Positions 6,364 to 45,712 of a stretch of 52,665 nt of DNA are shown one piece after another. The notes below the pieces were generated by a model. It saw nothing but the letters and a program-made list of their open reading frames with translations, did not search any database and had not been told where the DNA came from. The stretch is from a virus. Taxonomy: Duplodnaviria > Heunggongvirae > Uroviricota > Caudoviricetes. The stretch lies in the IMG/VR virus record IMGVR_UViG_3300036856_000037; one strand, 5' to 3'. The position numbers were made by a program, and so were the translations under genes. How positions within the stretch are numbered: position 1 is the first letter of the stretch; every line of letters begins with the position of its first letter.

Positions 6364-6426
6364 TGCCCAGCGCGGGACTTCAACCCGCCTCCCACTCCCA
6401 CATAAACGCAACGTCTAATAGTGGGC
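6364..6426 (-). pseudogene. tRNA remnant/minihelix (acceptor + T arm only)
   Basis: GCCCA.../TGGGC-A acceptor; GCGGG-TTGAAGT-CCCGC T arm; no D or anticodon arm. Confidence 0.45.
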
Positions 6427-6446
6427 GGCTCTACACCACCAGGGCG

Positions 6447-6530
6447 TACCCGAGGTGAGATTCGAACTCACACGTCCGAAGACACTGGTCCCTGAAGCCA
6501 GCGCGTCTGCCGAAATTCCGCCACACGGGC
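6447..6530 (-). tRNA. tRNA-Leu(CAG)
   Basis: CTGGC-TTCAGGG-ACCAG; long variable arm. Confidence 0.92.
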
Positions 6531-6545
6531 ATTGTTAAGTTGTTT

Positions 6546-6637
6546 TGGTGGAGGGCGGAGGTCATGCTCCCCAAGCTCCATTACGGCTTCCCGGGTTTCG
6601 AATCCGGTCGCAGGACTATCCCGCTGCTTCACCCTCC
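6546..6637 (-). tRNA. tRNA-Ser(CGA), aberrant T-loop
   Basis: GGAGGGT/GCCCTCC-ACCA; CCGGA-TTCGAAA-CCCGG; long V arm; T-loop AGCATGA. Confidence 0.75.
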
Positions 6638-20945: not shown

Positions 20946-21019
20946 CGCGCGGTGGGGCAGTTCGGTAGCCCGCTGGGCTCATAATCCAGAGGTCGTCGGT
21001 TCAAATCCGACCCGCGCCA
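20946..21019 (+). tRNA. initiator-type tRNA-Met(CAT)
   Basis: C1.C72 mismatch; CTGGG-CTCATAA-TCCAG. Confidence 0.88.
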
Positions 21020-21031
21020 CGAAGTAGTAAT

Positions 21032-21450: not shown

Positions 21451-21591
21451 CGTCGGTCGATCAACGACATGCTCGTCGGCAAGGACTTTCTCGGTCGACC
21501 GACTTAAGCACGTCCTCCCAGAGCTGAGCAGAGTCAGACTGGCCCGAAAGGGGCGGCGGGGTTCCGCCCCACTACAACGAAAGGAACGACC

Positions 21592-21618
21592 ATGCGAAAG
21601 CAGATCACGCCCCGATAA
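21592..21618 (+). CDS. leader peptide MRKQITPR before tRNA-Lys(CTT)
   Basis: AAGGA SD; AAG at codon 3; 5' region homologous to the 43613 leader. Confidence 0.65.
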   Translation: MRKQITPR

Positions 21619-21621
21619 CAC

Positions 21622-22147: not shown

Positions 22148-22390
22148 CTAGCACGGCGGCTTGGGTGGCGCATTGCGACACTCCTCGTCGTGTGCTGTGA
22201 CCACCCGCTGACACAAGTCCACCATCTTGGTGTTGCTGGTCTGACTGACCCGCACCATGATAGCGAATGCTTCATCAGAAGTGACCGAAAAGCGTTCCAT
22301 CAGAACGCCTTTCGCCGTCGCGATCACGTCGCGCGTTTCAAGCGCCCGCTGTAGCTGGGCGCAGCGTGCGCACTCAGCCACATACCCCAT
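22148..22390 (-). CDS. stand-alone ANTAR-domain RNA-binding protein
   Basis: LQRALETRDVIATAKGVLMERF..T.DEAF..MV..SQ.SN.K. Confidence 0.88.
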   Translation of the reverse strand: MGYVAECARCAQLQRALETRDVIATAKGVLMERFSVTSDEAFAIMVRVSQTSNTKMVDLCQRVVTAHDEECRNAPPKPPC

Positions 22391-23277: not shown

Positions 23278-23365
23278 GCTCTCGGACACCGACAAATCCA
23301 CAGGTGCTGGCTATTGAAGCTTCGTCGCCTGTCCGAGAGCATAAACGAGAGAGAACGGAGCACCC

Positions 23366-23560
23366 ATGATCAAGGCTGAGATCGACGGACGCAATATCGA
23401 GGTCGACTGCCATGAGCACGACACCAACCGGCTCATCAAGTGCGAAAACTGTGGCGACTCCCTGCGCGGCGTCCCCTGTGAGCCCGATGACCAGTGGGTG
23501 CGCCGGGTCGCCGACTGGATAACAGAGCACGTGCGTACAGCACATCCCACGTCCGCTTGA
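23366..23560 (+). CDS. small Zn-binding-like protein between Thr tRNAs
   Basis: GGAG RBS; CENC. Confidence 0.7.
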   Translation: MIKAEIDGRNIEVDCHEHDTNRLIKCENCGDSLRGVPCEPDDQWVRRVADWITEHVRTAHPTSA

Positions 23561-23628
23561 AATGTGCGGAACGGAGCCGGTGGTCCCGTGGACCCAGCCG
23601 CCGGGCATGCGTGCGGCAACCATCACTC

Positions 23629-23701: not shown

Positions 23702-23719
23702 CTGGTGACACTACCTACC

Positions 23720-23745
23720 GATGCGCCAGTCGCCTGGCCTATAAT
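23720..23745 (+). promoter_or_regulatory. dyad promoter, copy 2
   Basis: GATGCGCCAG-TCGCC-TGGCC-TATAAT. Confidence 0.75.
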
Positions 23746-23766
23746 GGCGGTGGCTGTACCGGGTAA

Positions 23767-24001: not shown

Positions 24002-24520
24002 ATGAGCGATGCGACCTTTGGCAGCACCTTCAACGGCGGCCAGGGCATTCACGAATTGACCGGTGAGCCCTATCTGGCGGTCACCATTCACTCCTCCATC
24101 ATCGGTTGGCGCCACCGCAAAGGCGTGATGCAGAAAATCCTGTGGAAAAAGCACGTTGACGCCCGCGGGCGCACGTCCTACCGCGCGCGCAAGTGGCCCA
24201 ACATGCCCTTCACCCTGCTGACCCGGGCGCGGTATGCCCTGCGTCCCCAGCTGTGTGCCGTGGGCTTTCACCACCGCGCCGACATCACCGAGGTGGACGG
24301 CAGTGTGTGGCGCGCGGGCTGCCTGTCGTGCGACACGCTGGTCAGGCCACATAAGAAGCTTCCGGCCAACCCCAGCAGGGTGGCAGAACTACAGGCGCTC
24401 AATGCCAAGGCGGACAAGATGAGCGCCGCCATCGACGCCTACCTGGCGGGGGAGGGTCCGTGTCCGCACTGCGCCTACCCCGATGGGAAACATGAGCCCG
24501 GCTGCTGGGAGGCGGAGTAG
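24002..24520 (+). CDS. hypothetical protein
   Basis: 172 aa ORF; CLSC, CPHC. Confidence 0.65.
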   Translation: MSDATFGSTFNGGQGIHELTGEPYLAVTIHSSIIGWRHRKGVMQKILWKKHVDARGRTSYRARKWPNMPFTLLTRARYALRPQLCAVGFHHRADITEVDGSVWRAGCLSCDTLVRPHKKLPANPSRVAELQALNAKADKMSAAIDAYLAGEGPCPHCAYPDGKHEPGCWEAE

Positions 24521-25031
24521 CCCGCGTCTGCGCAGCACGCGCGACATACGTCAGCAACGTCGCCCTCGGCGTCACAGTTGCTGGAATCACCTCATCGTTG
24601 CGCCGTTGTGGCCGAAGCACGGTGTCAACCTCGGCACCATGTTGCGGACGTGTGATGCCGCGGGCGCGTGCTTGGCCGTCCCGAAACTCCCCTGGGTCAA
24701 GGAAGCATTGGCCAAGGGAAATACATTGCGCACTCCGTCGTGTGTGCACTGGATCTATGCCGATGTAGGCGACTGGCTGAAGCGTCAGCGGGAGGGAGGC
24801 TCTCTGGTGGTGGGGGTGGAATTGACGGAGGAGTCAGTGCGACTGGCCGACCTGCCGATGGCACGTCAGCGGACAGTCATCGTGCTGGGGAATGAGCGCA
24901 CCGGCATCCCCCAAGAAGGCCTGGAGCACCTGGACGTAGCGGTGGAGATTCCGATGATTGGCAGCGGTGACAGCCTTAATGTCGTCATCGCCGGGTCTCT
25001 GGTCCTCTACAAGCTAGCGGGCCTGGTCTAG
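24483..25031 (+). CDS. SpoU/TrmH-family (SPOUT) RNA 2'-O-methyltransferase
   Basis: NLGTMLRTCDA, VLGNERTGI, VEIPMIGSGDSLNV motifs; start uncertain. Confidence 0.9.
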   Translation: MGNMSPAAGRRSSPRLRSTRDIRQQRRPRRHSCWNHLIVAPLWPKHGVNLGTMLRTCDAAGACLAVPKLPWVKEALAKGNTLRTPSCVHWIYADVGDWLKRQREGGSLVVGVELTEESVRLADLPMARQRTVIVLGNERTGIPQEGLEHLDVAVEIPMIGSGDSLNVVIAGSLVLYKLAGLV

Positions 25032-27018: not shown

Positions 27019-27069
27019 ATGTTGATTCAGGGCATACGACGAATTAGGTCGCGGCGACAAAGCCGCTGA
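27019..27069 (+). CDS. leader peptide MLIQGIRRIRSRRQSR of the Ile/Arg/Gln tRNA cluster
   Basis: 11 of 15 non-start codons are Ile, Arg or Gln. Confidence 0.65.
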   Translation: MLIQGIRRIRSRRQSR

Positions 27070-27082
27070 CCTGCGTTTTCAT

Positions 27083-27907: not shown

Positions 27908-27912
27908 CTGTC

Positions 27913-27938
27913 GAGGTGCCAGCGCGCTGGCGTATAAT
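27913..27938 (+). promoter_or_regulatory. dyad promoter, copy 3
   Basis: GAGGTGCCAG-CGCGC-TGGCG-TATAAT. Confidence 0.75.
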
Positions 27939-27955
27939 TACCTTGGGTAGGTGGC

Positions 27956-32174: not shown

Positions 32175-32184
32175 CCGCTATACC

Positions 32185-32210
32185 GATGTGCCAGCGGGGT
32201 GGCTTATACT
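32185..32210 (+). promoter_or_regulatory. dyad promoter, copy 4 (leaderless ATG at 32217)
   Basis: GATGTGCCAG-CGGGG-TGGCT-TATACT. Confidence 0.75.
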
Positions 32211-32216
32211 GTCCCT

Positions 32217-35614: not shown

Positions 35615-35805
35615 TGGAGCACGTCGACATCTATTACCCCGCCATCCACAACCCGCCCTACAGCGTGCGCGTCACTGACACTGAGACCGGCATGGTAGTG
35701 ACCGAGCATGGGGAACAGGGAGAGCCGATGCTGGTCATCAAACGCCGCGCGCTCAATGAAATGGAGCGTCGTCGCAACGACTTACGACCTCCAAAAACGG
35801 TCTAG
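35614..35805 (+). CDS. hypothetical protein
   Basis: TAGTG coupling. Confidence 0.6.
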   Translation: MEHVDIYYPAIHNPPYSVRVTDTETGMVVTEHGEQGEPMLVIKRRALNEMERRRNDLRPPKTV

Positions 35806-35806
35806 T

Positions 35807-35832
35807 GATGTGCCAGCGCGCTGGCGTATAAT
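35807..35832 (+). promoter_or_regulatory. dyad promoter, copy 5
   Basis: GATGTGCCAG-CGCGC-TGGCG-TATAAT. Confidence 0.75.
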
Positions 35833-35860
35833 TAGCGTGTGACACTTACTGGTACTCGCC

Positions 35861-38368: not shown

Positions 38369-41300
38369 TCAGTAGCCCGTGGTGTCCTGATATATGCACA
38401 CCCAGGCGGCTTTGACCGTGTCATAGAGGAACCGGACGACGTGTGTCTTGTTCACCACAGTGGTACCGAGCAACGTTCCACTGATGCCCGACGCAGCAAA
38501 CTTTGATCCCCAGGTAATGGTCCTCGCCGTGCCGTTGTCCTTGAATCGGAAGGTTAACTGCTGGCCGTCGATAGGATTGCCCGTCATCCCCGAGGTCATA
38601 GACGTGATTGCAGCGGCCAACGCGGTGATGAGTACCGTATTGGTGGAGTCCGTATTGAACGTCGGCGTGGCCGATGAAGTGATGGACGTGGTCCACGGGT
38701 TGATAAGCGCCGCACTGGTGGCCAGCCGGTACATAAGGATGCCGCTGGTGCCGGGGATGTCAATTGGGGTGCCCGAGACGTTGTAGCCATGCGGGGTGCC
38801 GGTCCAGTTGACCTCGCAGGTGGCGTCTTCCAGGTAGACGATGGCCAGGTTGGAGCCCGGCATAGTCACCGAGTAGACGGAGATGAAACCGCTACCGATG
38901 TCAACCTTGGAGGACTGGGACAAGTCGAACACTGCGCCGGCGTTCGTGGCGTAGGCACGGTTGGAAACCTCCCAGTTGGAGACTGAGCCGGTGGCCTGGA
39001 CGAATTTGAGGATGCCGTCGTTGGCGTTGTTACTACCGATCTCTGTACGGAACTGGTCAATCCGCACGTTGGAGGAGTAGTCAATGTAGACATCCGGTCC
39101 ACCGTTGGTGGACTCATTGACCTCCAGGTTGCTCAGGACAGGCGAGAATTGGATGGTCAGCCTGATCATCGCCTCAGTCGATGGGCAGCCGTTGCGGTCC
39201 TGGTAGATGGCGGTAAATCGGTTAGCTGGCATCCCGACGTTGCCGTTGCCACACAGCCGGATGCAGGAGCCGGTGGTGCCGTATTCCGAACGGATGTTGT
39301 CGAACGTGCAGCCCCATACCGAGACCTGGTGACCGCTGGTCTCTTTCAAGAAGATGCCGCGATAGCACGTGCCCTGGAAGTCCAGGTTTTCAAAAATCCC
39401 GTGCCACCATCCATACCCCAGCGTGGTGGTGCAGTCGAAGCTGATCGCACCCGTACTGCTGTTGGACGAGCTCTGCTGGCTGGCGTAGGCGAAATTCAAG
39501 TTCCTGATGACGAAGTCATTGAAGTCCTCCGCTAGGAATGCAAAGATCTCATCACCATTGGTGGCCTGCGAGATGGTCGCACCCATACCGTTGATGGTCC
39601 AACTGCCGTAATGGGTTGTTGCGCCGGTGGTGCCCAGCGTCAGTGCACTGCTGATCTTGTACGTCTTCCCTGGCGTCAGGTAGCCCGTGCCCTGGTTTTG
39701 ATAGACGTTGTTGAGCCACGCCTGCATCGCAGTGGTGTCGTCCGTCGTGCCGTCCGCGTGGGCTCCGTAATTCTCCGGCACGTTCCACGCCGCCGAACTC
39801 TGCACGGCATAGAAGCAGTCCCAGTTCGCCGCCGTTGTGGGGGTGGCCGTCAAGGCAGTGAAGGTCGCGTTGGTATTGGGCCCCAGGACCACGATGGAGT
39901 TAGCGCCGCTGGACTCTACGGTGACGGCGCCCGTGGAGTTATTGATGACCTGGTACTGCGCACCTGCAGGAACGCTGGTGGTGGGAAGAAGAACCGTCTG
40001 CGTCGTGGTCCCGGTGAAGACTTGTATCTGGTCGCTCGTAATGGTCAGGGTGGTGGTGCCGCCCGCGGTGGCCGTACTGGTCATCTGCGCCAGGAACGCA
40101 TTCGACGACAGGTTGATATTCGCGTCCCACTCGGCAATCGTGCTGGCGGTGGGAGTGGTAGAGCCGCTGGCCGCGCCGGGACTGGCCCAGCTATTGTCGC
40201 CGCGCAGGAAGGTTGAGGTTGACGCTGACCCGGTGCCCAACTGGGCCGCCGCCACCAAGCCCGACGAGTTGAGGCCTGCGTAACCGCTGTTTTGGTTTTT
40301 GTTGCCCTGGACCTCACCCGTCCCACCGCCAGAGGGCACGGTGAAGGTGTTGCCGTCCGTCCCGGCGAGCGTCAGGGAGTTATTGACCGTCAGGTATTTT
40401 CCTGAGGCAGCAAACAGGCCGAGGTACTGGCAGTCCCAGTTGGCGGCGGTGGTGGGCGTCGCCGTCAGCGCAGAGAAGATGCCCGACGTCCCCGCCCCGA
40501 GGATGACGATGGTATTGGCGCCACTGGACTGGACGGTGACCAACCCGGTGCTGTTGTTGATGACCTGGTACTGCAACCCGGCGGGCACACTCGTCGTCGG
40601 GAGCTTGACGGTTTGCGTCGTCGTGCCGGTGAACACCTGGACCTGCGTACTCGCAATGGTCAGCGTCGTCGTGCCCGCCGCGGTGGCCGTACTGGTCGCC
40701 GACGTCAGAAAGGCGTTGGCCGCCAAGTTGAGGTTGGTGTCCCACTCAGCCGCCGTACTGGCAGTCGGAGAAGTCGAGCCACTGACGCCCGAGCCGCCCG
40801 GCGTCGACCAGGTGTTGTCACCGCGCAGGAAGGTGGAACTACTGGCCGACCCAGAACCCAGTTGCGCGGTGGCCACCACACCGGAGGAGTTAAGTCCTGC
40901 GTAGCCGCTGTTCTGGTTCTTGTTGCCCTGGATCTCTGCCGTCCCGCCGCCGGAGGGGACCGTCAGGGTGTTGCCATCGGTCCCGGCCAAGGTCAGGCTG
41001 TTGCTCACCGTCAGCACCTTGCCGCTGGCGATGCTGATGCCGAAGTACTCTCCACTCCACCCGGTGGTCGTCGTCGGGGTGGCCGAGGTGGCGGTGAAGA
41101 TGCCGCTGGTCCCCCCGGCCAGGATGGTAATCGTGCCGCCACCGGAAGCCTGCACGGTGACTGCTCCGGTGGACTGGTTGATGACCCAGTACTGCGCACC
41201 CGCCGGGATAGACGTGGTGGGGAGCTTCACCGTCTGCGTCGTCGTGCCGGTCAGGACTTGAATCTGATCACTGGTGATGGTCAACGTGGTGGTGCCCGCC

Positions 41301-42604
41301 GCCGTCGCGGTGCTCGTCAGTTGCGCGAAGAAAGCGTTGGACGAGAAGTTGACGTTACCGTCCCACTCAGCAATGGTGCTGGCAGTCGGGGTTGCACTCC
41401 CGCCGCCGCCACTGGGTGTTGCCCAGGTGTTGTCACCACGCAGATACGTGGTGCTGGACGCGCTACCGGTACCCAGTTGGGTGGTCCCGACGACGCCCGA
41501 GGAGTTGAGGCCGGCATAACCGGAGTCCTGATTCTTGTTGCCCTGCCACTCCAAGGTGGCGTTGGACCCGGGGAATGTGATGGTCACGCCGTCAGTGCCC
41601 GACAACGTCAGGGAGTTATTGACCGTCAGCGCCTTACCGCTGGCGTAGATGCCGCCGAAGTACTGGCCGTCCCAGCCCGAGGAACTACTGGGCGCGTTGG
41701 CCAGCGCGGTGAAGATGCCACTTGTCCCCCCGGCCAGCGCCACCACTGTACTGGCACCTGAGGCCTGGACAGTCACCGCGCCGGTGCTGTTATTGATGAT
41801 GAAATACGTTGCGCCAGCGACGATTCCCGTGCCGGGCAGTTTCACCGTCTGGGTGCTGGTGCCGGTGAACACCTGGATCTGGTGACTGACGATGCTGAGC
41901 GTGGTGGTCCCGGCGGCGGTGGCGGTGCTGGTCAGGCTGGAGAAGAACGCATTGGCGCTCATGTTCACGTTGCCGTCCCATTCGGCAATCGTGCTGGCAG
42001 TGGGGACAGCACTGCCGGTGGCGCCGCCACCGCTGGCGCCCAGGAGTTCCAGGGCCGCCGCCGCGGTGCTGGCTGACACCAACGAGGCACCGAAGGGCGT
42101 GATGCTGTTGGGGAGCACCACGTTGGGCACCGTGCCGCCGTAGGCCAGCCGGGAGAGATTGGGGTCGGTGATGTTGACCGATGTGGTGTCTGAGGACGCG
42201 ATGAAGGCGAACGGCTGGATCTGCTGGTTACCCGTGGCATAGACGACGTTGGTGAAGGACACGTCGTAGATGAGACTGCCGATACCTTGCGCCGCGAGGT
42301 TGAGGACGGCCGAGTTGGCCAGCAGCTCCACACCGGTGGCCTGGGACTGGCCGATGGTCTCGAGCACCCCTTGGACGATGCGACCCTGGACGGCAGTGAT
42401 GGCGACGGCGGTGTTGGCGCTGTTGCCGCCCCCCAGGTCCAGGTTCTCCACATAGGTGGTGAAGCCGGTGGGGACACGAGGAGTGAAGGTGACAAGGCCG
42501 CTGACCACACCGAAGGCCGGGGCCGTTTGCTCCCCGTACAGCGGCGGGTTCTGGATGTCGTTGAAGTTGCCGGTGACGGTGAAGTACGTCAGCTCATTGG
42601 CCAT
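38369..42604 (-). CDS. tail fibre/spike: four ~200-aa repeats plus pectate-lyase-like beta-helix (depolymerase) domain
   Basis: repeats PTAST.AEWD.N.N..., NKNQ.SGYAGLNSSG, LRGDN.W; NVPENYGA.ADGTTDDTTAMQ...YKISS.L beta-helix start. Confidence 0.85.
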   Translation of the reverse strand: MANELTYFTVTGNFNDIQNPPLYGEQTAPAFGVVSGLVTFTPRVPTGFTTYVENLDLGGGNSANTAVAITAVQGRIVQGVLETIGQSQATGVELLANSAVLNLAAQGIGSLIYDVSFTNVVYATGNQQIQPFAFIASSDTTSVNITDPNLSRLAYGGTVPNVVLPNSITPFGASLVSASTAAAALELLGASGGGATGSAVPTASTIAEWDGNVNMSANAFFSSLTSTATAAGTTTLSIVSHQIQVFTGTSTQTVKLPGTGIVAGATYFIINNSTGAVTVQASGASTVVALAGGTSGIFTALANAPSSSSGWDGQYFGGIYASGKALTVNNSLTLSGTDGVTITFPGSNATLEWQGNKNQDSGYAGLNSSGVVGTTQLGTGSASSTTYLRGDNTWATPSGGGGSATPTASTIAEWDGNVNFSSNAFFAQLTSTATAAGTTTLTITSDQIQVLTGTTTQTVKLPTTSIPAGAQYWVINQSTGAVTVQASGGGTITILAGGTSGIFTATSATPTTTTGWSGEYFGISIASGKVLTVSNSLTLAGTDGNTLTVPSGGGTAEIQGNKNQNSGYAGLNSSGVVATAQLGSGSASSSTFLRGDNTWSTPGGSGVSGSTSPTASTAAEWDTNLNLAANAFLTSATSTATAAGTTTLTIASTQVQVFTGTTTQTVKLPTTSVPAGLQYQVINNSTGLVTVQSSGANTIVILGAGTSGIFSALTATPTTAANWDCQYLGLFAASGKYLTVNNSLTLAGTDGNTFTVPSGGGTGEVQGNKNQNSGYAGLNSSGLVAAAQLGTGSASTSTFLRGDNSWASPGAASGSTTPTASTIAEWDANINLSSNAFLAQMTSTATAGGTTTLTITSDQIQVFTGTTTQTVLLPTTSVPAGAQYQVINNSTGAVTVESSGANSIVVLGPNTNATFTALTATPTTAANWDCFYAVQSSAAWNVPENYGAHADGTTDDTTAMQAWLNNVYQNQGTGYLTPGKTYKISSALTLGTTGATTHYGSWTINGMGATISQATNGDEIFAFLAEDFNDFVIRNLNFAYASQQSSSNSSTGAISFDCTTTLGYGWWHGIFENLDFQGTCYRGIFLKETSGHQVSVWGCTFDNIRSEYGTTGSCIRLCGNGNVGMPANRFTAIYQDRNGCPSTEAMIRLTIQFSPVLSNLEVNESTNGGPDVYIDYSSNVRIDQFRTEIGSNNANDGILKFVQATGSVSNWEVSNRAYATNAGAVFDLSQSSKVDIGSGFISVYSVTMPGSNLAIVYLEDATCEVNWTGTPHGYNVSGTPIDIPGTSGILMYRLATSAALINPWTTSITSSATPTFNTDSTNTVLITALAAAITSMTSGMTGNPIDGQQLTFRFKDNGTARTITWGSKFAASGISGTLLGTTVVNKTHVVRFLYDTVKAAWVCIYQDTTGY

Positions 42605-42839
42605 GCCAGTTCTTTCCTGGAGCGACTGAGACGAGTCAACTCTATCGGCTGGGTAGCGACCAGACGGTTAACCTGCGCCGCTGTTTTGGCGGCTGTACGG
42701 CGCGTAGGCCGACGTTTGGCGCGGCGGCGGGGTATGTGTTGGGTATGGCTGACGACGAGAAGCAGGACGACAAGGACGACGAGAAGGTTGGGGACTTGAG
42801 CCGCGACCCCGACAGCGCAGGCAACTTCGTACCGCCGTT

Positions 42840-43538
42840 GTGGCTGGGGAAGATCATCAAGTTCGCCCGCGGTCGATAAAGTACCGTGAACGCGCTGTCG
42901 TCCTGCGTCACCAGCAGGCGCGGGAGCACGACTGGACCGTCACACTTCTGACGCGCGACCATCACGTCCTGACCGCACTGCTCAAGTACGCCCAGCGACC
43001 GTCGAACAGGTTGCGTCCCCGGCTTCGGGTCGGCGCGCATGTTGACGTGGAGTTGTACCGGGGGAATGTCATCACGCACGTCCAGCCGGTGGACGCGGTC
43101 CTCACTCACGCCTACGTCCCGGCCATGATGGAGGCGGCGGAGCTACTGGCTGAGGAAGGCCCGTGTGGTGACCTCTACTGGCTGACCGTCACGACACTGC
43201 GGGCCAAGGTGGCGCCGGGTCCGATGTTTGCCTCCTACCTCCTGCGCGCCATGGAGCTTTCCGGCTGGGGGCTGGCGCTGGCAGCGTGCGCGTGTTGTGG
43301 GGCACCGGGACCACACAAAGCGTTCCACGTCGCCGCCGGGGGGAGCGTGTGCCTGCGCTGTCGACCCCCGGGCGCCATCGTGGTGGAGTTGGAGTTGGTG
43401 GAGTTGCTGGCGGCATTGCGTGGGGAGAAGTGGGTGGTGGTGGAAGCCGCGCCGGCGAGCCTGGGCGCGCGCGCGACGGGGCTGATCGTGGCGCACTTTC
43501 AACAGCAGGTGGAGTGTCAGCTTGAGCGGTTGCCGTAA
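42840..43538 (+). CDS. recO: DNA repair protein RecO (actinobacterial type)
   Basis: YRERAVVLR, VTLLTRDH, YLLRAM..SGW..AL..CACCG.PGPHKAFHVAAGGSVC..CRP; start uncertain. Confidence 0.88.
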   Translation: MAGEDHQVRPRSIKYRERAVVLRHQQAREHDWTVTLLTRDHHVLTALLKYAQRPSNRLRPRLRVGAHVDVELYRGNVITHVQPVDAVLTHAYVPAMMEAAELLAEEGPCGDLYWLTVTTLRAKVAPGPMFASYLLRAMELSGWGLALAACACCGAPGPHKAFHVAAGGSVCLRCRPPGAIVVELELVELLAALRGEKWVVVEAAPASLGARATGLIVAHFQQQVECQLERLP

Positions 43539-43612
43539 CCTGCTACCGCACGCGGGTGGCGGCTGGTACTGTCATTGCCGTTACGTACCAGTCACTACGA
43601 GAGGAGCCGACC

Positions 43613-43675
43613 ATGCGACAGCATCGTAAACACGAGCCCGAACGCATGCAGAATAACGTCGGCGCTCGTAGCTGA
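43613..43675 (+). CDS. leader peptide MRQHRKHEPERMQNNVGARS of the Lys/Glu/Asn/Gln/Met tRNA cluster
   Basis: GAGGAG SD; AAA, GAG, GAA, AAT/AAC and CAG codons; pairs with the tRNA-Lys 5' strand. Confidence 0.7.
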   Translation: MRQHRKHEPERMQNNVGARS

Positions 43676-43733
43676 GTGGTTGTAGCTGGGGACTTTTAAT
43701 CCTTAGACGGGGGTTCGATTCCCTCCGGGCGCA
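43662..43733 (+). tRNA. tRNA-Lys(TTT)
   Basis: GGGGA-CTTTTAA-TCCTT. Confidence 0.9.
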
Positions 43734-43789
43734 CCGATTGGTGTCAATAACAGCATCGTTAGCAACGAGCGCTTCGGCACCAATCTCCC

Positions 43790-43863
43790 GGTCCGGTGGG
43801 GTAGTGGTTCAGCCTGCCGCCCTTTCAAGGCGGACGACCTCGGTTCGAATCCGAGTCGGACTA
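43790..43863 (+). tRNA. tRNA-Glu(TTC)
   Basis: CCGCC-CTTTCAA-GGCGG. Confidence 0.92.
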
Positions 43864-43864
43864 C

Positions 43865-43937
43865 GGCTCCTTGGAGTAGACGGAATCTCGCCACCTTCTC
43901 ACGGTGGAGAACACGGGTTCGAATCCCGTAGGAGCTA
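43865..43937 (+). tRNA. tRNA-Glu(CTC)
   Basis: CCACC-TTCTCAC-GGTGG. Confidence 0.92.
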
Positions 43938-43996
43938 CGTGACAACTGGATAGAGAATTCGTACGTTCAGGCGAAAATAAAAGAACAGTACGACAT

Positions 43997-44070
43997 TGGC
44001 TCGTAGCTCAATGTGGCAGAGCGCTCGGCTGTTAACCGAGTGGTTGAAGGTTCGACCCCTTCCGAGTCAG
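43997..44070 (+). tRNA. tRNA-Asn(GTT)
   Basis: CTCGG-CTGTTAA-CCGAG; G73. Confidence 0.92.
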
Positions 44071-44082
44071 CGCAACACTTAA

Positions 44083-44153
44083 TCCGGGATCGTCTAATGG
44101 CAGGACAACACCCTCTGGAGGTGGGAACCGAGGTTCGACCCCTTGTCCCGGAG
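44083..44153 (+). tRNA. tRNA-Gln(CTG)
   Basis: ACACC-CTCTGGA-GGTGG; G73. Confidence 0.9.
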
Positions 44154-44171
44154 CGTAACAACTGAAGACTT

Positions 44172-44249
44172 AGCGCGGTAGGAAAGTTTGGTAATCCGCT
44201 GGGCTCATAACCCAGAGAACGCTCGGTTCAAATCCGGCCCGCGCCACCA
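44172..44249 (+). tRNA. initiator tRNA-Met(CAT)
   Basis: A1.C72 mismatch; three G:C pairs CTGGG/CCCAG; encoded CCA. Confidence 0.88.
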
Positions 44250-44273
44250 AGCGCCCTGGCATATAATGGCAGG

Positions 44274-44444
44274 GTGATCTACCTCGACGTAGTGCCGCTA
44301 CACCGGCTCAAGCCCGGTGAGAAGTTTGTTCTGACGTCCGGTGGCGCTTCCGACAACCCCATCGAAGTGCTCTACCGGACCCCCGAACTTGCCAACATGC
44401 CCGAGGGTCAACTGTCGGTTATTCGAGTCAAAGACAGCATGTGA
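44274..44444 (+). CDS. hypothetical protein (56 aa), leaderless
   Basis: TGGCA-TATAAT-N6-GTG. Confidence 0.55.
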   Translation: MIYLDVVPLHRLKPGEKFVLTSGGASDNPIEVLYRTPELANMPEGQLSVIRVKDSM

Positions 44445-44742
44445 TGAGCTACGCGCGGACCACCTGGACCCACGCCGCGTCGAGCGAAAGCTACCTCATC
44501 TTCCCCTGCCTCAAATGCGGCGACCCTCATTGGATGGAGGCCCCGAAGGAGGGGGACGTGGTGTCCGAGTCGTTCGACTGTGGCGTCACCATCACCGTGG
44601 GGCCAGTCCAATGAGTGAATGGGTCGACTGGGGTAAAGATGACACCGTCAGCACCGGCCCGTCGCCGAGCATCATTCTCGCCGCTATCACCATCGCCCTC
44701 GCGGTACTCACGGCCATAGTGCTTCTCCGGTAATTGACTACT

Positions 44743-44768
44743 GATGTGCCAGTCGCCTGGCGTAAAAT
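44743..44768 (+). promoter_or_regulatory. dyad promoter, copy 6 (leaderless ATG at 44775)
   Basis: GATGTGCCAG-TCGCC-TGGCG-TAAAAT. Confidence 0.75.
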
Positions 44769-44774
44769 GGCGGT

Positions 44775-45215
44775 ATGGACTTTTTACAGAAGGACCAGCT
44801 ACAGCGCGGCGGCATCTACGCCATCCGTAGCCGCAACCTCATCGTCGGCGCCTATGACGGAGAGCGTGGCTTCGTCGGTATCCGCGAGAAGTTCGGCGAC
44901 AAGTACCTGTTCAAGGAGTACTTAGGCCGCGAACACGGCGGGGAGCCGGGGTTTGACACCGTCCACCCGGTGAAGCTCCTCGACATGGTCCCTGATGGGA
45001 TGGAGATCAAGGAGTACGGCGACCTCATCTGCATGACCTGCAAAGAGAATCCCCGGCCAACCGGCAAGGACTGGCCTGAGCGGGATGAATGCGCCTGCGG
45101 GACTAACGCCGAGACGACGGACCAAGACATTCGGATACCGATGTACCGACCACTGTTCGACCTGCTCGTGCCTTATGAGGAGCGACAGGAGAAGGAGTGG
45201 TACGGCGACGATTAA
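44775..45215 (+). CDS. hypothetical protein, paralog of 47582..48058
   Basis: RGG.Y....RNL.V..YDG..GF.GIR.K.G..YLF.EY. Confidence 0.75.
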   Translation: MDFLQKDQLQRGGIYAIRSRNLIVGAYDGERGFVGIREKFGDKYLFKEYLGREHGGEPGFDTVHPVKLLDMVPDGMEIKEYGDLICMTCKENPRPTGKDWPERDECACGTNAETTDQDIRIPMYRPLFDLLVPYEERQEKEWYGDD

Positions 45216-45569: not shown

Positions 45570-45639
45570 GGGTTGAGGTTACCCCGGCTTTGCTCGACTA
45601 ACCCCCCACTGGTGAGTGTCTAGTTCATGGCTACCTACC

Positions 45640-45665
45640 GATGTGCCAGGCCGGTGGCGTATAAT
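45640..45665 (+). promoter_or_regulatory. dyad promoter, copy 7
   Basis: GATGTGCCAG-GCCGG-TGGCG-TATAAT. Confidence 0.75.
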
Positions 45666-45712
45666 TTTCCCAGGGGTGGCAAGTGTCCATCCATGGGGAG
45701 GAGCGCAGCCAG

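Follow-up and report, generated by a model that had tools for sequence, protein, structure and literature searches.

Does the short open reading frame (ORF) that precedes a cluster of phage tRNA genes, and runs into the first of them, tie maturation of the tRNA to the decoding of codons read by that same cluster? The purpose and expression of tRNA arrays in large phages are still debated. The locus considered here lies in a 52,665-nt stretch of DNA from a tailed virus (IMG/VR record IMGVR_UViG_3300036856_000037; the whole stretch is called the window below), across which 37 tRNA genes are distributed in six clusters. The cluster in question encodes tRNAs for Lys, Glu, Glu, Asn, Gln and Met. 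Comparison with related sequences indicates that its leader, of about 120 nt, is a real and conserved element, which is probably a control element tying tRNA maturation to ribosome decoding.

The window encodes a lysin A-like protein, and its tRNA order (Pro-Trp-Tyr; Cys..His..Ala-Phe-Val..Lys; Thr x3; Gly-Asp..Ile-Arg..Gln-Arg) resembles that of Mycobacterium phage Cali, a Bixzunavirus whose array (92217-99156) is largely collinear with it. On this order the tRNA arrays of the window and of Bixzunavirus are of common ancestry, and the window is taken to be part of an uncultured phage with a host of the Mycobacteriales type. The Lys-Glu-Glu-Asn-Gln-Met block and its leader are missing from the Cali array. 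No close relative was found among deposited phages, blastn and tblastn searches of GenBank phages giving only tRNA or distant lysin matches.

The leader region is the 123-nt spacer between a RecO-like gene and tRNA-Lys(UUU) (Table 1). The RecO-like protein matched only itself and cellular Mycobacterium RecO proteins at no more than 46% identity; one Logan contig (L001) is identical to the window sequence. The hairpin that separates this gene from the leader has a predicted energy of -19.3 kcal/mol (z -2.6), and an equally stable structure was seen in 3 of 200 shuffles. The tRNA-Lys gene matches Rfam RF00005 over 43662-43733 with 64.3 bits, above the gathering score.

Table 1 Positions of the leader, its tRNA cluster and related elements in the window
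Feature	Position	Strand	Remarks
RecO-like gene	42840-43538	+	Pfam RecO_N/RecO_C
Stable hairpin	43556-43598	+	18 nt past RecO-like stop, immediately 5' of leader
Block common to both Lys leaders	43593-43623 and 21570-21602	+	CACTAC, GArAGGAr, GACCATGCGAmAGCA; about -20 to +11 of start codon
SD-like GAGGAG / GGAGCC	43601-43608	+	Six bases before ATG
Copy A, anti-junction motif GCCGAC	43606-43611	+	Perfect complement of 43658-43663
Leader ORF MRQHRKHEPERMQNNVGARS	43613-43675	+	20 codons, 16 before tRNA
AAA codon	43628-43630	+	Cognate tRNA-Lys(UUU)
Copy B ACGAGCCCGA	43632-43641	+	Codons cAC GAG CCC GAa; 5' arm of the helix first proposed
Target C	43658-43669	+	Last four leader bases and tRNA nt 1-8
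tRNA-Lys(UUU), first gene of cluster	43662-43735	+	ARAGORN, Lys(ttt)
Glu(ttc), Glu(ctc), Asn(gtt), Gln(ctg), Met(cat)	43790-44249	+	Remaining cluster
Paralogous leader before tRNA-Lys(CUU)	21570-21621	+	ORF 21592-21618
Promoter-like repeat copies	23715-23751, 27908-27944, 32180-32216, 35802-35838, 44738-44774, 45635-45671		Weaker copy at about 44250-44273

A sequence-only reading of this locus had proposed that the leader ORF holds a codon for every tRNA of the cluster, that a segment just past its AAA codon sequesters tRNA-Lys, and that a stalled ribosome frees the tRNA acceptor strand. Every coordinate and letter of that proposal proved correct when re-read. GAGGAG at 43601-43606 lies six bases 5' of the ATG at 43613, and the ORF (ATG CGA CAG CAT CGT AAA CAC GAG CCC GAA CGC ATG CAG AAT AAC GTC GGC GCT CGT AGC TGA) contains AAA, GAG, GAA, AAT/AAC and CAG twice, just as claimed. 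It terminates within the D-arm of the tRNA, its TGA (43673-43675) being tRNA-Lys nt 12-14. The tRNA proposed to match the start codon is initiator-like. In this last tRNA of the cluster (CAT, 44172-44249) positions 1 and 72 are mismatched and the anticodon loop is adjoined by three G-C pairs, and the second tRNA(CAT) gene of the window (20946-21020) has a 1:72 mismatch too (A x C and C x C in the pair of genes); by their sequences both genes carry initiator-like features.

The combination of an SD sequence and an ATG was discarded as evidence in itself, as the window has 109 such sites, many of them before ORFs of fewer than 25 codons. The codon content is another matter. Cognate codons make up 8 of the 15 free codons of the leader, with p ~1e-4 in dinucleotide shuffles and p = 0.003 when the composition at each codon position was kept. 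Among 1108 stretches in the window consisting of an ATG and 15 open codons, the leader is the only one containing all five codon classes, and none of 6193 stretches of like kind within 19 likely genes does so. AAA is rare in the genes of this phage (5.1 per 1000 codons in the 19 likely genes). The codon match exceeds chance.

Relatives of the locus were reached through the TrmH homologue of the window, which has a counterpart of 77% identity on an ENA phage-like contig, L022, carrying the cluster Lys(ttt)-Glu(ttc)-Glu(ctc)-Asn-Gln(ctg)-Met-Met. Patterns built from the window and L022 leaders led to the IMG/VR contigs L025, L026 and L027 (one sequence type, V), L073 and L074. The order Lys-Glu-Glu-Asn-Gln-Met is unchanged in all of these. 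Five orthologous leaders (window, L022, V, L073 and L074) were compared, which amount to two to three effectively independent lineages, L073 and L074 being near-identical. Other routes gave nothing of use. Exact leader and tRNA patterns had no match in IMG/VR or metagenomes, the 28 matches of a relaxed leader pattern in GTDB genomes included none adjoining a tRNA, and a tRNA-Lys pattern found mostly unrelated phages. Homologues of the 146-aa protein encoded downstream were on contigs without tRNAs, and the TrmH homologues P0103, P0110 and P0107 were bacterial.

In the regions retrieved, the related contigs have almost no protein genes in common with the window, and the surroundings of the leader differ. 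The RecO-like gene is missing at the corresponding place, and the upstream neighbour in type V is a divergently transcribed gene. In L022 an 86-aa acidic ORF lies upstream and ends with a TGA one base before the leader ATG, and in L073 and L074 the leader is inside the array, with tRNA-Gln(ttg) about 92 nt upstream. At the place of the window hairpin, a hairpin of different sequence is found in the V-type contigs, L073 and L074.

Against these changing surroundings all five leaders retain GGAGCC, the 6-nt spacing, ATG CGA, and in-frame AAA, GAG and GAA, the shared core being [CGT or CAC] AAA C[AC or CG] GAG CC[C or T] GAA C[G or A]C. The ORFs have 17-21 codons, 13-16 of them before the tRNA, with no earlier stop, and all end at tRNA nt 12-24. 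The leaders differ by four indels of 3 nt and one of 4 nt (at the junction, in the window), so that four of five keep the frame (~0.045 by chance). Among V, L074, L073 and L022 the leader is 82-95% identical and tRNA-Lys 73-77% (the L073/L074 pair being set aside in the latter range), and between the window and the others the leader is 62-73% and tRNA-Lys 73-84% identical. The inter-tRNA spacers of the window are absent from the compact V-type cluster. Conserved about as well as tRNA-Lys or better, the leader is thus under purifying selection no weaker than that acting on the tRNA.

The codon content is conserved as well. Cognate codons account for 8/15, 7/13, 7/13, 7/12 and 6/12 of the free codons of the five leaders, with shuffle p values of 8e-5, 5e-4 and 8e-3 in the three leaders tested. 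In the variable 3' part of the leader the sequence turns over and cognate codons are kept at 4/5, 3/4 and 2/3. Several features together argue that the leader ORF is probably translated: the SD spacing is constant, four of five indels keep the frame, no stop precedes the tRNA, a rare codon, AAA, is invariant although outside any conserved helix, cognate codons abound, and the junction in L022 is of the coupling type.

The same leaders also have a conserved pairing potential. The motif GAGCC(N)GA is present twice in each, in the window as copy A between the SD and the ATG and as copy B in codons 7-10. In the relatives the motif is GGAGCCTGA, again with copy A between SD and ATG and with copy B in codons 6-9 (CGGAGCCTGA at the homologous codons). 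Both copies in the relatives complement the leader/tRNA junction, which reads TCAG/GC(G)TCCG there and GTCG/GC..GCTCGT in the window. The 5' acceptor strand and the site of RNase P cleavage both fall within this target, whose possible partners are copy A, copy B or the tRNA's own 3' strand. Copy A forms a perfect 6-bp helix with the junction in every sequence. In the relatives this helix is GCCTGA with TCAGGC, three pairs being changed on both sides relative to the window, and these changes are compensatory.

The helix of the sequence-only reading, ACGAGCCCGA paired with TCGG-c-GCTCGT (43659-43669), was found as described. It has 10 bp with C2 of the tRNA bulged, covers tRNA nt 1 and 3-8 and has a duplex energy of -15 to -16 kcal/mol in the window. 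In four other distinct relatives, too, this stretch of the leader pairs with that target. With their own sequences the copy B:junction duplexes have energies of -14.2 to -16.0 kcal/mol, and combining an arm of the window with a target of the relatives, or the reverse, gives only -6.6 to -10.5 kcal/mol. A 10-mer at the same fixed position of shuffled leaders pairs equally well in at most 0.005 of cases in the two relatives tested, the remaining two carrying the arm and target of L022. The leader ORF, its AAA, GAG and GAA codons and the anti-acceptor helix thus all recur in five related phage sequences.

Complementarity of the leader to tRNA-Lys recurs in relatives, but in the window alone the helix is at chance level. 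A duplex as good with the same target formed in 14-17% of shuffled leaders (13.7% in dinucleotide shuffles), the minimum-energy fold ties up six or more of the 7 acceptor bases in 40% of shuffled leaders, and the proposed helix has a probability of about 0 in the thermodynamic ensemble of the window. By leader-tRNA interaction energy tRNA-Lys(UUU) ranks only fifth among the 37 tRNAs of the window. These shuffles led us to reject the helix as significant in the window by itself.

Folding predictions gave a similarly divided answer on release of the tRNA. In the minimum-energy fold of the window, tRNA nt 1-16 are paired with 43590-43607 and not with copy B. In L022 and L027 the copy B:junction helix does belong to this fold. 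Masking 43620-43645, which on the sequence-only reading should free the tRNA, left it sequestered in silico, because copy A and the upstream CACUACGAG pair with tRNA nt 1-16 instead. All five untranslated precursors are predicted to hold the acceptor strand in a helix with the leader, and the best structure that contains the acceptor stem is 2.5-13.3 kcal/mol less stable. A ribosome positioned with AAA in the A site reduces this gap to 0.5-5.2 kcal/mol in the four relatives but leaves it at 10.6 kcal/mol in the window; note that such gaps only rank states, since nearest-neighbour energies undervalue real tRNA folds. Stalling thus narrows the predicted gap in four of five sequences, as the proposal would have it, but the acceptor-stem fold is lowest in energy in none of the four relatives even with the ribosome on AAA, and the window tRNA is not released. 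The copy A:junction helix, the copy B:junction helix and the acceptor stem are, in silico, mutually exclusive and lie within 2-13 kcal/mol of each other. An intrinsic terminator (a G+C hairpin with a U tract) was absent between leader and tRNA in the window, L022 and L027.

Taking these data together we favor, with a probability of roughly 0.4, a ribosome-dependent switch working in the direction first proposed, in which copy B is an anti-acceptor element and the tRNA becomes free to fold when a ribosome dwells on AAA..GAG..GAA. When no ribosome covers copy B, the local copy B:junction hairpin would capture the 5' acceptor strand before the 3' strand of the tRNA has been transcribed, and formation of the cloverleaf and RNase P cleavage would be delayed. 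A ribosome dwelling on AAA-CNN-GAG-CCN-GAA would mask copy B, allowing the acceptor stem to form and tRNA-Lys to be released. Since the first three tRNAs of the cluster are the ones that decode AAA, GAG and GAA, slow decoding would give more output of those tRNAs that are in short supply. The competition would be kinetic, and the downstream tRNAs might also be affected.

What keeps the probability of the switch at this level is that copy A can stand in for copy B, that several matching codons are located in helix arms, and that the case is built from sequence. GAG, GAA, the junction CAG and the internal ATG are all within helix arms, and hence their conservation may be structural; GGAGCC could likewise be retained for pairing and not as an SD sequence. 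Other findings also weigh against the switch. The sensed codons are present once or twice each, unlike the runs of hisL or pheL, an intrinsic terminator is lacking, masking does not free the window tRNA, shuffled leaders often sequester the acceptor strand and four tRNAs of the window rank higher in leader interaction energy. The paralogous tRNA-Lys(CUU) leader is without sequestration, the arrays of phages Cali and GMA2 are without codon matching, and the independent lineages are only two to three.

If the leader were conserved only as an RNA, for instance as a stem for processing, a hairpin protecting the 5' end or a device delaying RNase P, the ORF would be incidental, GGAGCC would be kept for junction pairing and ATGCG for pairing with CGCAT. 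AUGCG does pair with CGCAU in four of the five leaders, and the RNAalifold consensus is one long hairpin, closing copy A on the junction and AUGCG on CGCAU, in which the conserved blocks are helix arms. The encoded peptide changes at most variable codons, with one synonymous difference against several replacements. This explanation must, however, take as coincidence the optimal and invariant spacing of SD and ATG, the in-frame indels and the lack of a stop in all five leaders. It also leaves aside the richness in cognate codons, which extends to the variable part, and the TGAgATG junction of L022, typical of translational coupling. Moreover, the invariant AAA sits 1-2 nt 5' of copy B and outside any conserved helix (CGTAAAC/CACAAAC). 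We consider a purely structural leader rather unlikely.

Translation could also matter without any sensing, and we think this unlikely. Ribosomes arriving from the SD or from an upstream gene would unwind the pairing of leader and tRNA and stop in the D-arm, maturation of the tRNA would need ongoing translation, and the codon match would be fortuitous. Consistent with such a role, the ORF always crosses the junction and stops within the tRNA, the L022 ORF is coupled to the ORF upstream, and the acceptor strand is leader-paired in every untranslated state in silico. The enrichment of cognate codons and the placing of an invariant rare AAA just before copy B are left unexplained by it.

That the leader has no function, and hitch-hikes with a mobile tRNA cassette carrying a helix and a codon match that arose by chance in one ancestor, is very unlikely. 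The chance-level helix of the window would fit, as would a look-elsewhere effect, several similar leaders having been proposed for this window, and the spacers 43736-43789 and 43939-43996 are cognate-rich too, without a start codon and absent in relatives. Against this, conservation of the leader among four lineages exceeds that of the tRNA, the adjoining spacers and genes are not conserved at all, and both helices show compensatory changes. Most improbable is a functional basic micro-peptide (MRQ.RK.EPE...) whose overlap with the tRNA reflects genome compaction, since, although all five leaders begin M-R-(Q)-(H)-R/H-K-x-E-P-E, the C-terminal third is tRNA sequence read in two different frames and completely different, most differences are replacements or indels, and the Lys(CUU) paralogues share only Met-Arg.

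The tRNA-Lys(CUU) gene of the window (from 21622) has a leader of its own, with an ORF of 8 codons (ATG CGA AAG CAG ATC ACG CCC CGA TAA) that ends 3 nt before the tRNA. The block common to the two Lys leaders gives a local alignment score of 34 (null 14 +/- 5), and CACTAC..GARAGGAR is present at these two places only in the window and in none of 100 shuffles. That both leaders have their initiation region in common speaks for the favored switch. Sequestration of tRNA-Lys(CUU) by this leader was rejected, as folding predicts none, and the two peptides share only Met-Arg. In the relatives the corresponding spacers (L027 6101-6159, L073 1740-1798, L074 5398-5459) have ATG (ATG) CGA directly after tRNA-Val, and the frame passes through a conserved hairpin, with an in-frame AAG in its loop (GCGAAAGC), up to or into the tRNA; in L027 it ends in a TAG at tRNA nt 8-10. 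These spacers contain several Thr, Arg and Asp codons, an enrichment that was not significant in shuffles.

A test of all 28 spacers of the window showed one sense frame to be enriched in codons read by the tRNAs of the cluster to which each spacer belongs (p = 0.0005 by label permutation; 0.17-0.3 on the antisense strand; 0.023 on the sense strand without the Lys-Glu-Glu-Asn-Gln-Met cluster). Matched leaders at all tRNA clusters of the window were nevertheless rejected, because part of this signal is artefact and because codon matching was not found in the tRNA arrays of Cali and GMA2. Of the spacers responsible, 23278-23628 is the off-frame of a real 64-aa gene and 6531-6637 is interrupted by stops. 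A leader at 27019-27082, rich in Arg, Ile and Gln codons (p 0.005-0.02), is among the remaining hits. Within the Lys-Glu-Glu-Asn-Gln-Met cluster, spacers 43939-43996 (8/18) and 43736-43789 (5/17) each have one open frame rich in cognate codons (p ~0.02 each), lack a start codon and are missing in the compact V-type cluster; the latter contains a partial copy of the leader (ACAGCATCGT..CGAGC, AATAAC). Of the leaders in the relatives, the one before Lys(UUU) is conspicuous, and besides it just a mini-ORF of L022 before Asn-Gln-Met-Met. There (6380-6450) a promoter-like TGGGCA, 17 nt and TAGAAT with a TG lie 6 nt before an 11-codon ORF, MLSRRQQRNPR, that has CAG CAG and AAT just 5' of the four tRNA genes and looks leaderless (shuffle p 0.005-0.008).

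Some further features of the window may be recorded. A TrmH/SpoU-type tRNA 2'-O-methyltransferase (24483-25031, plus strand) is 70-77% identical to proteins of Nocardia and other Mycobacteriales and apparently host-derived; L022 also encodes one. Between tRNA-Lys(CUU) and the Thr tRNAs is a gene for an 80-aa ANTAR-domain protein (22148-22390, minus strand; Pfam E 5e-21). ANTAR domains are RNA-binding regulators of the antitermination type, and Rfam detected no ANTAR-target RNA near the leader. A 1411-aa ORF (38369-42604, minus strand) has four repeat copies spaced by about 615-620 nt and only a sub-threshold Pfam match (DUF7363), and is possibly a tail-fibre-like gene. A promoter-like repeat, composed of GATGTGCCAG, a short inverted repeat and CTGGCGTATAAT, is often 3' of a tRNA cluster. 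At both sites checked (44274 and 44775) a start codon lies 6-7 nt past its -10-like hexamer, which suggests leaderless transcripts. The repeat is present several times on two IMG/VR contigs having nothing else in common with the window, and a search for relatives with it gave contigs sharing that repeat only plus one unrelated AT-rich phage.

The closest known parallels are the attenuators of trpL, hisL, pheL, thrL and ilvGMEDA, which likewise place a short SD-led ORF, with codons matching the product, upstream of the genes controlled, and in the ilv and thr leaders several amino acids are represented at once, as here. The attenuators have mutually exclusive helices overlapping the ORF, as is predicted for the phage leader. 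In contrast to them, the phage leader has no intrinsic terminator, its last helix is the acceptor stem of a tRNA, its codons are single or double and not in tandem runs, and its ORF runs into the controlled gene. Because a terminator is absent and tRNA genes stand where the attenuators have genes for biosynthetic enzymes, the leader would not be a member of the attenuator family but a variation on its principle. Translational attenuation of ermC, ermB and cat resembles the proposed switch in that a helix further downstream is rearranged post-transcriptionally, with no terminator, according to where a ribosome sits on the leader ORF. In the erm and cat systems a downstream ribosome-binding site is freed, whereas here the hidden element would be the RNase P site and the 5' strand of tRNA-Lys, the next gene, with no drug or arrest peptide implied.

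Leaderless polycysteine short ORFs are reported to attenuate operons in mycobacteria (bioRxiv 10.1101/834739). These too are actinobacterial elements in which the codons of a tiny ORF report the supply of one amino acid or tRNA, but they are leaderless and control protein-coding operons, whereas the phage leader is SD-led and precedes tRNA genes. The mini-ORF of L022 before Asn-Gln-Met-Met does come closer to them in its leaderless look. T-box riboswitches are also cis-acting RNAs that respond to tRNA status. They bind uncharged tRNA directly and without a ribosome, whereas the proposed phage switch would depend on one, and no T-box (RF00230) was detected, cmscan of 42500-45000 at E values up to 1 giving only the tRNAs and two sub-threshold unrelated matches. 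Our search of the literature found no publication on such control of phage tRNA genes, feedback control included.

A conserved 5' leader that masks the RNase P site of a polycistronic tRNA precursor would be of interest even if the RNA alone were selected. If the favored switch is correct, ribosome-mediated attenuation would have a new output, the maturation of tRNA in place of the transcription or translation of mRNA. A more far-reaching extension, put forward tentatively and in our view rather improbable, is that the phage gauges its own tRNA supply, the speed at which AAA, GAG and GAA (plus the Asn, Gln and Met codons) are decoded licensing RNase P maturation of the cluster only when it is slow, for example when host tRNA-Lys(UUU), Glu or Gln has been lost to anticodon nucleases. 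The leader would then be a leader-peptide switch having a tRNA acceptor stem, not a terminator, as its effector helix, and phages would meter their tRNA supply by decoding speed.
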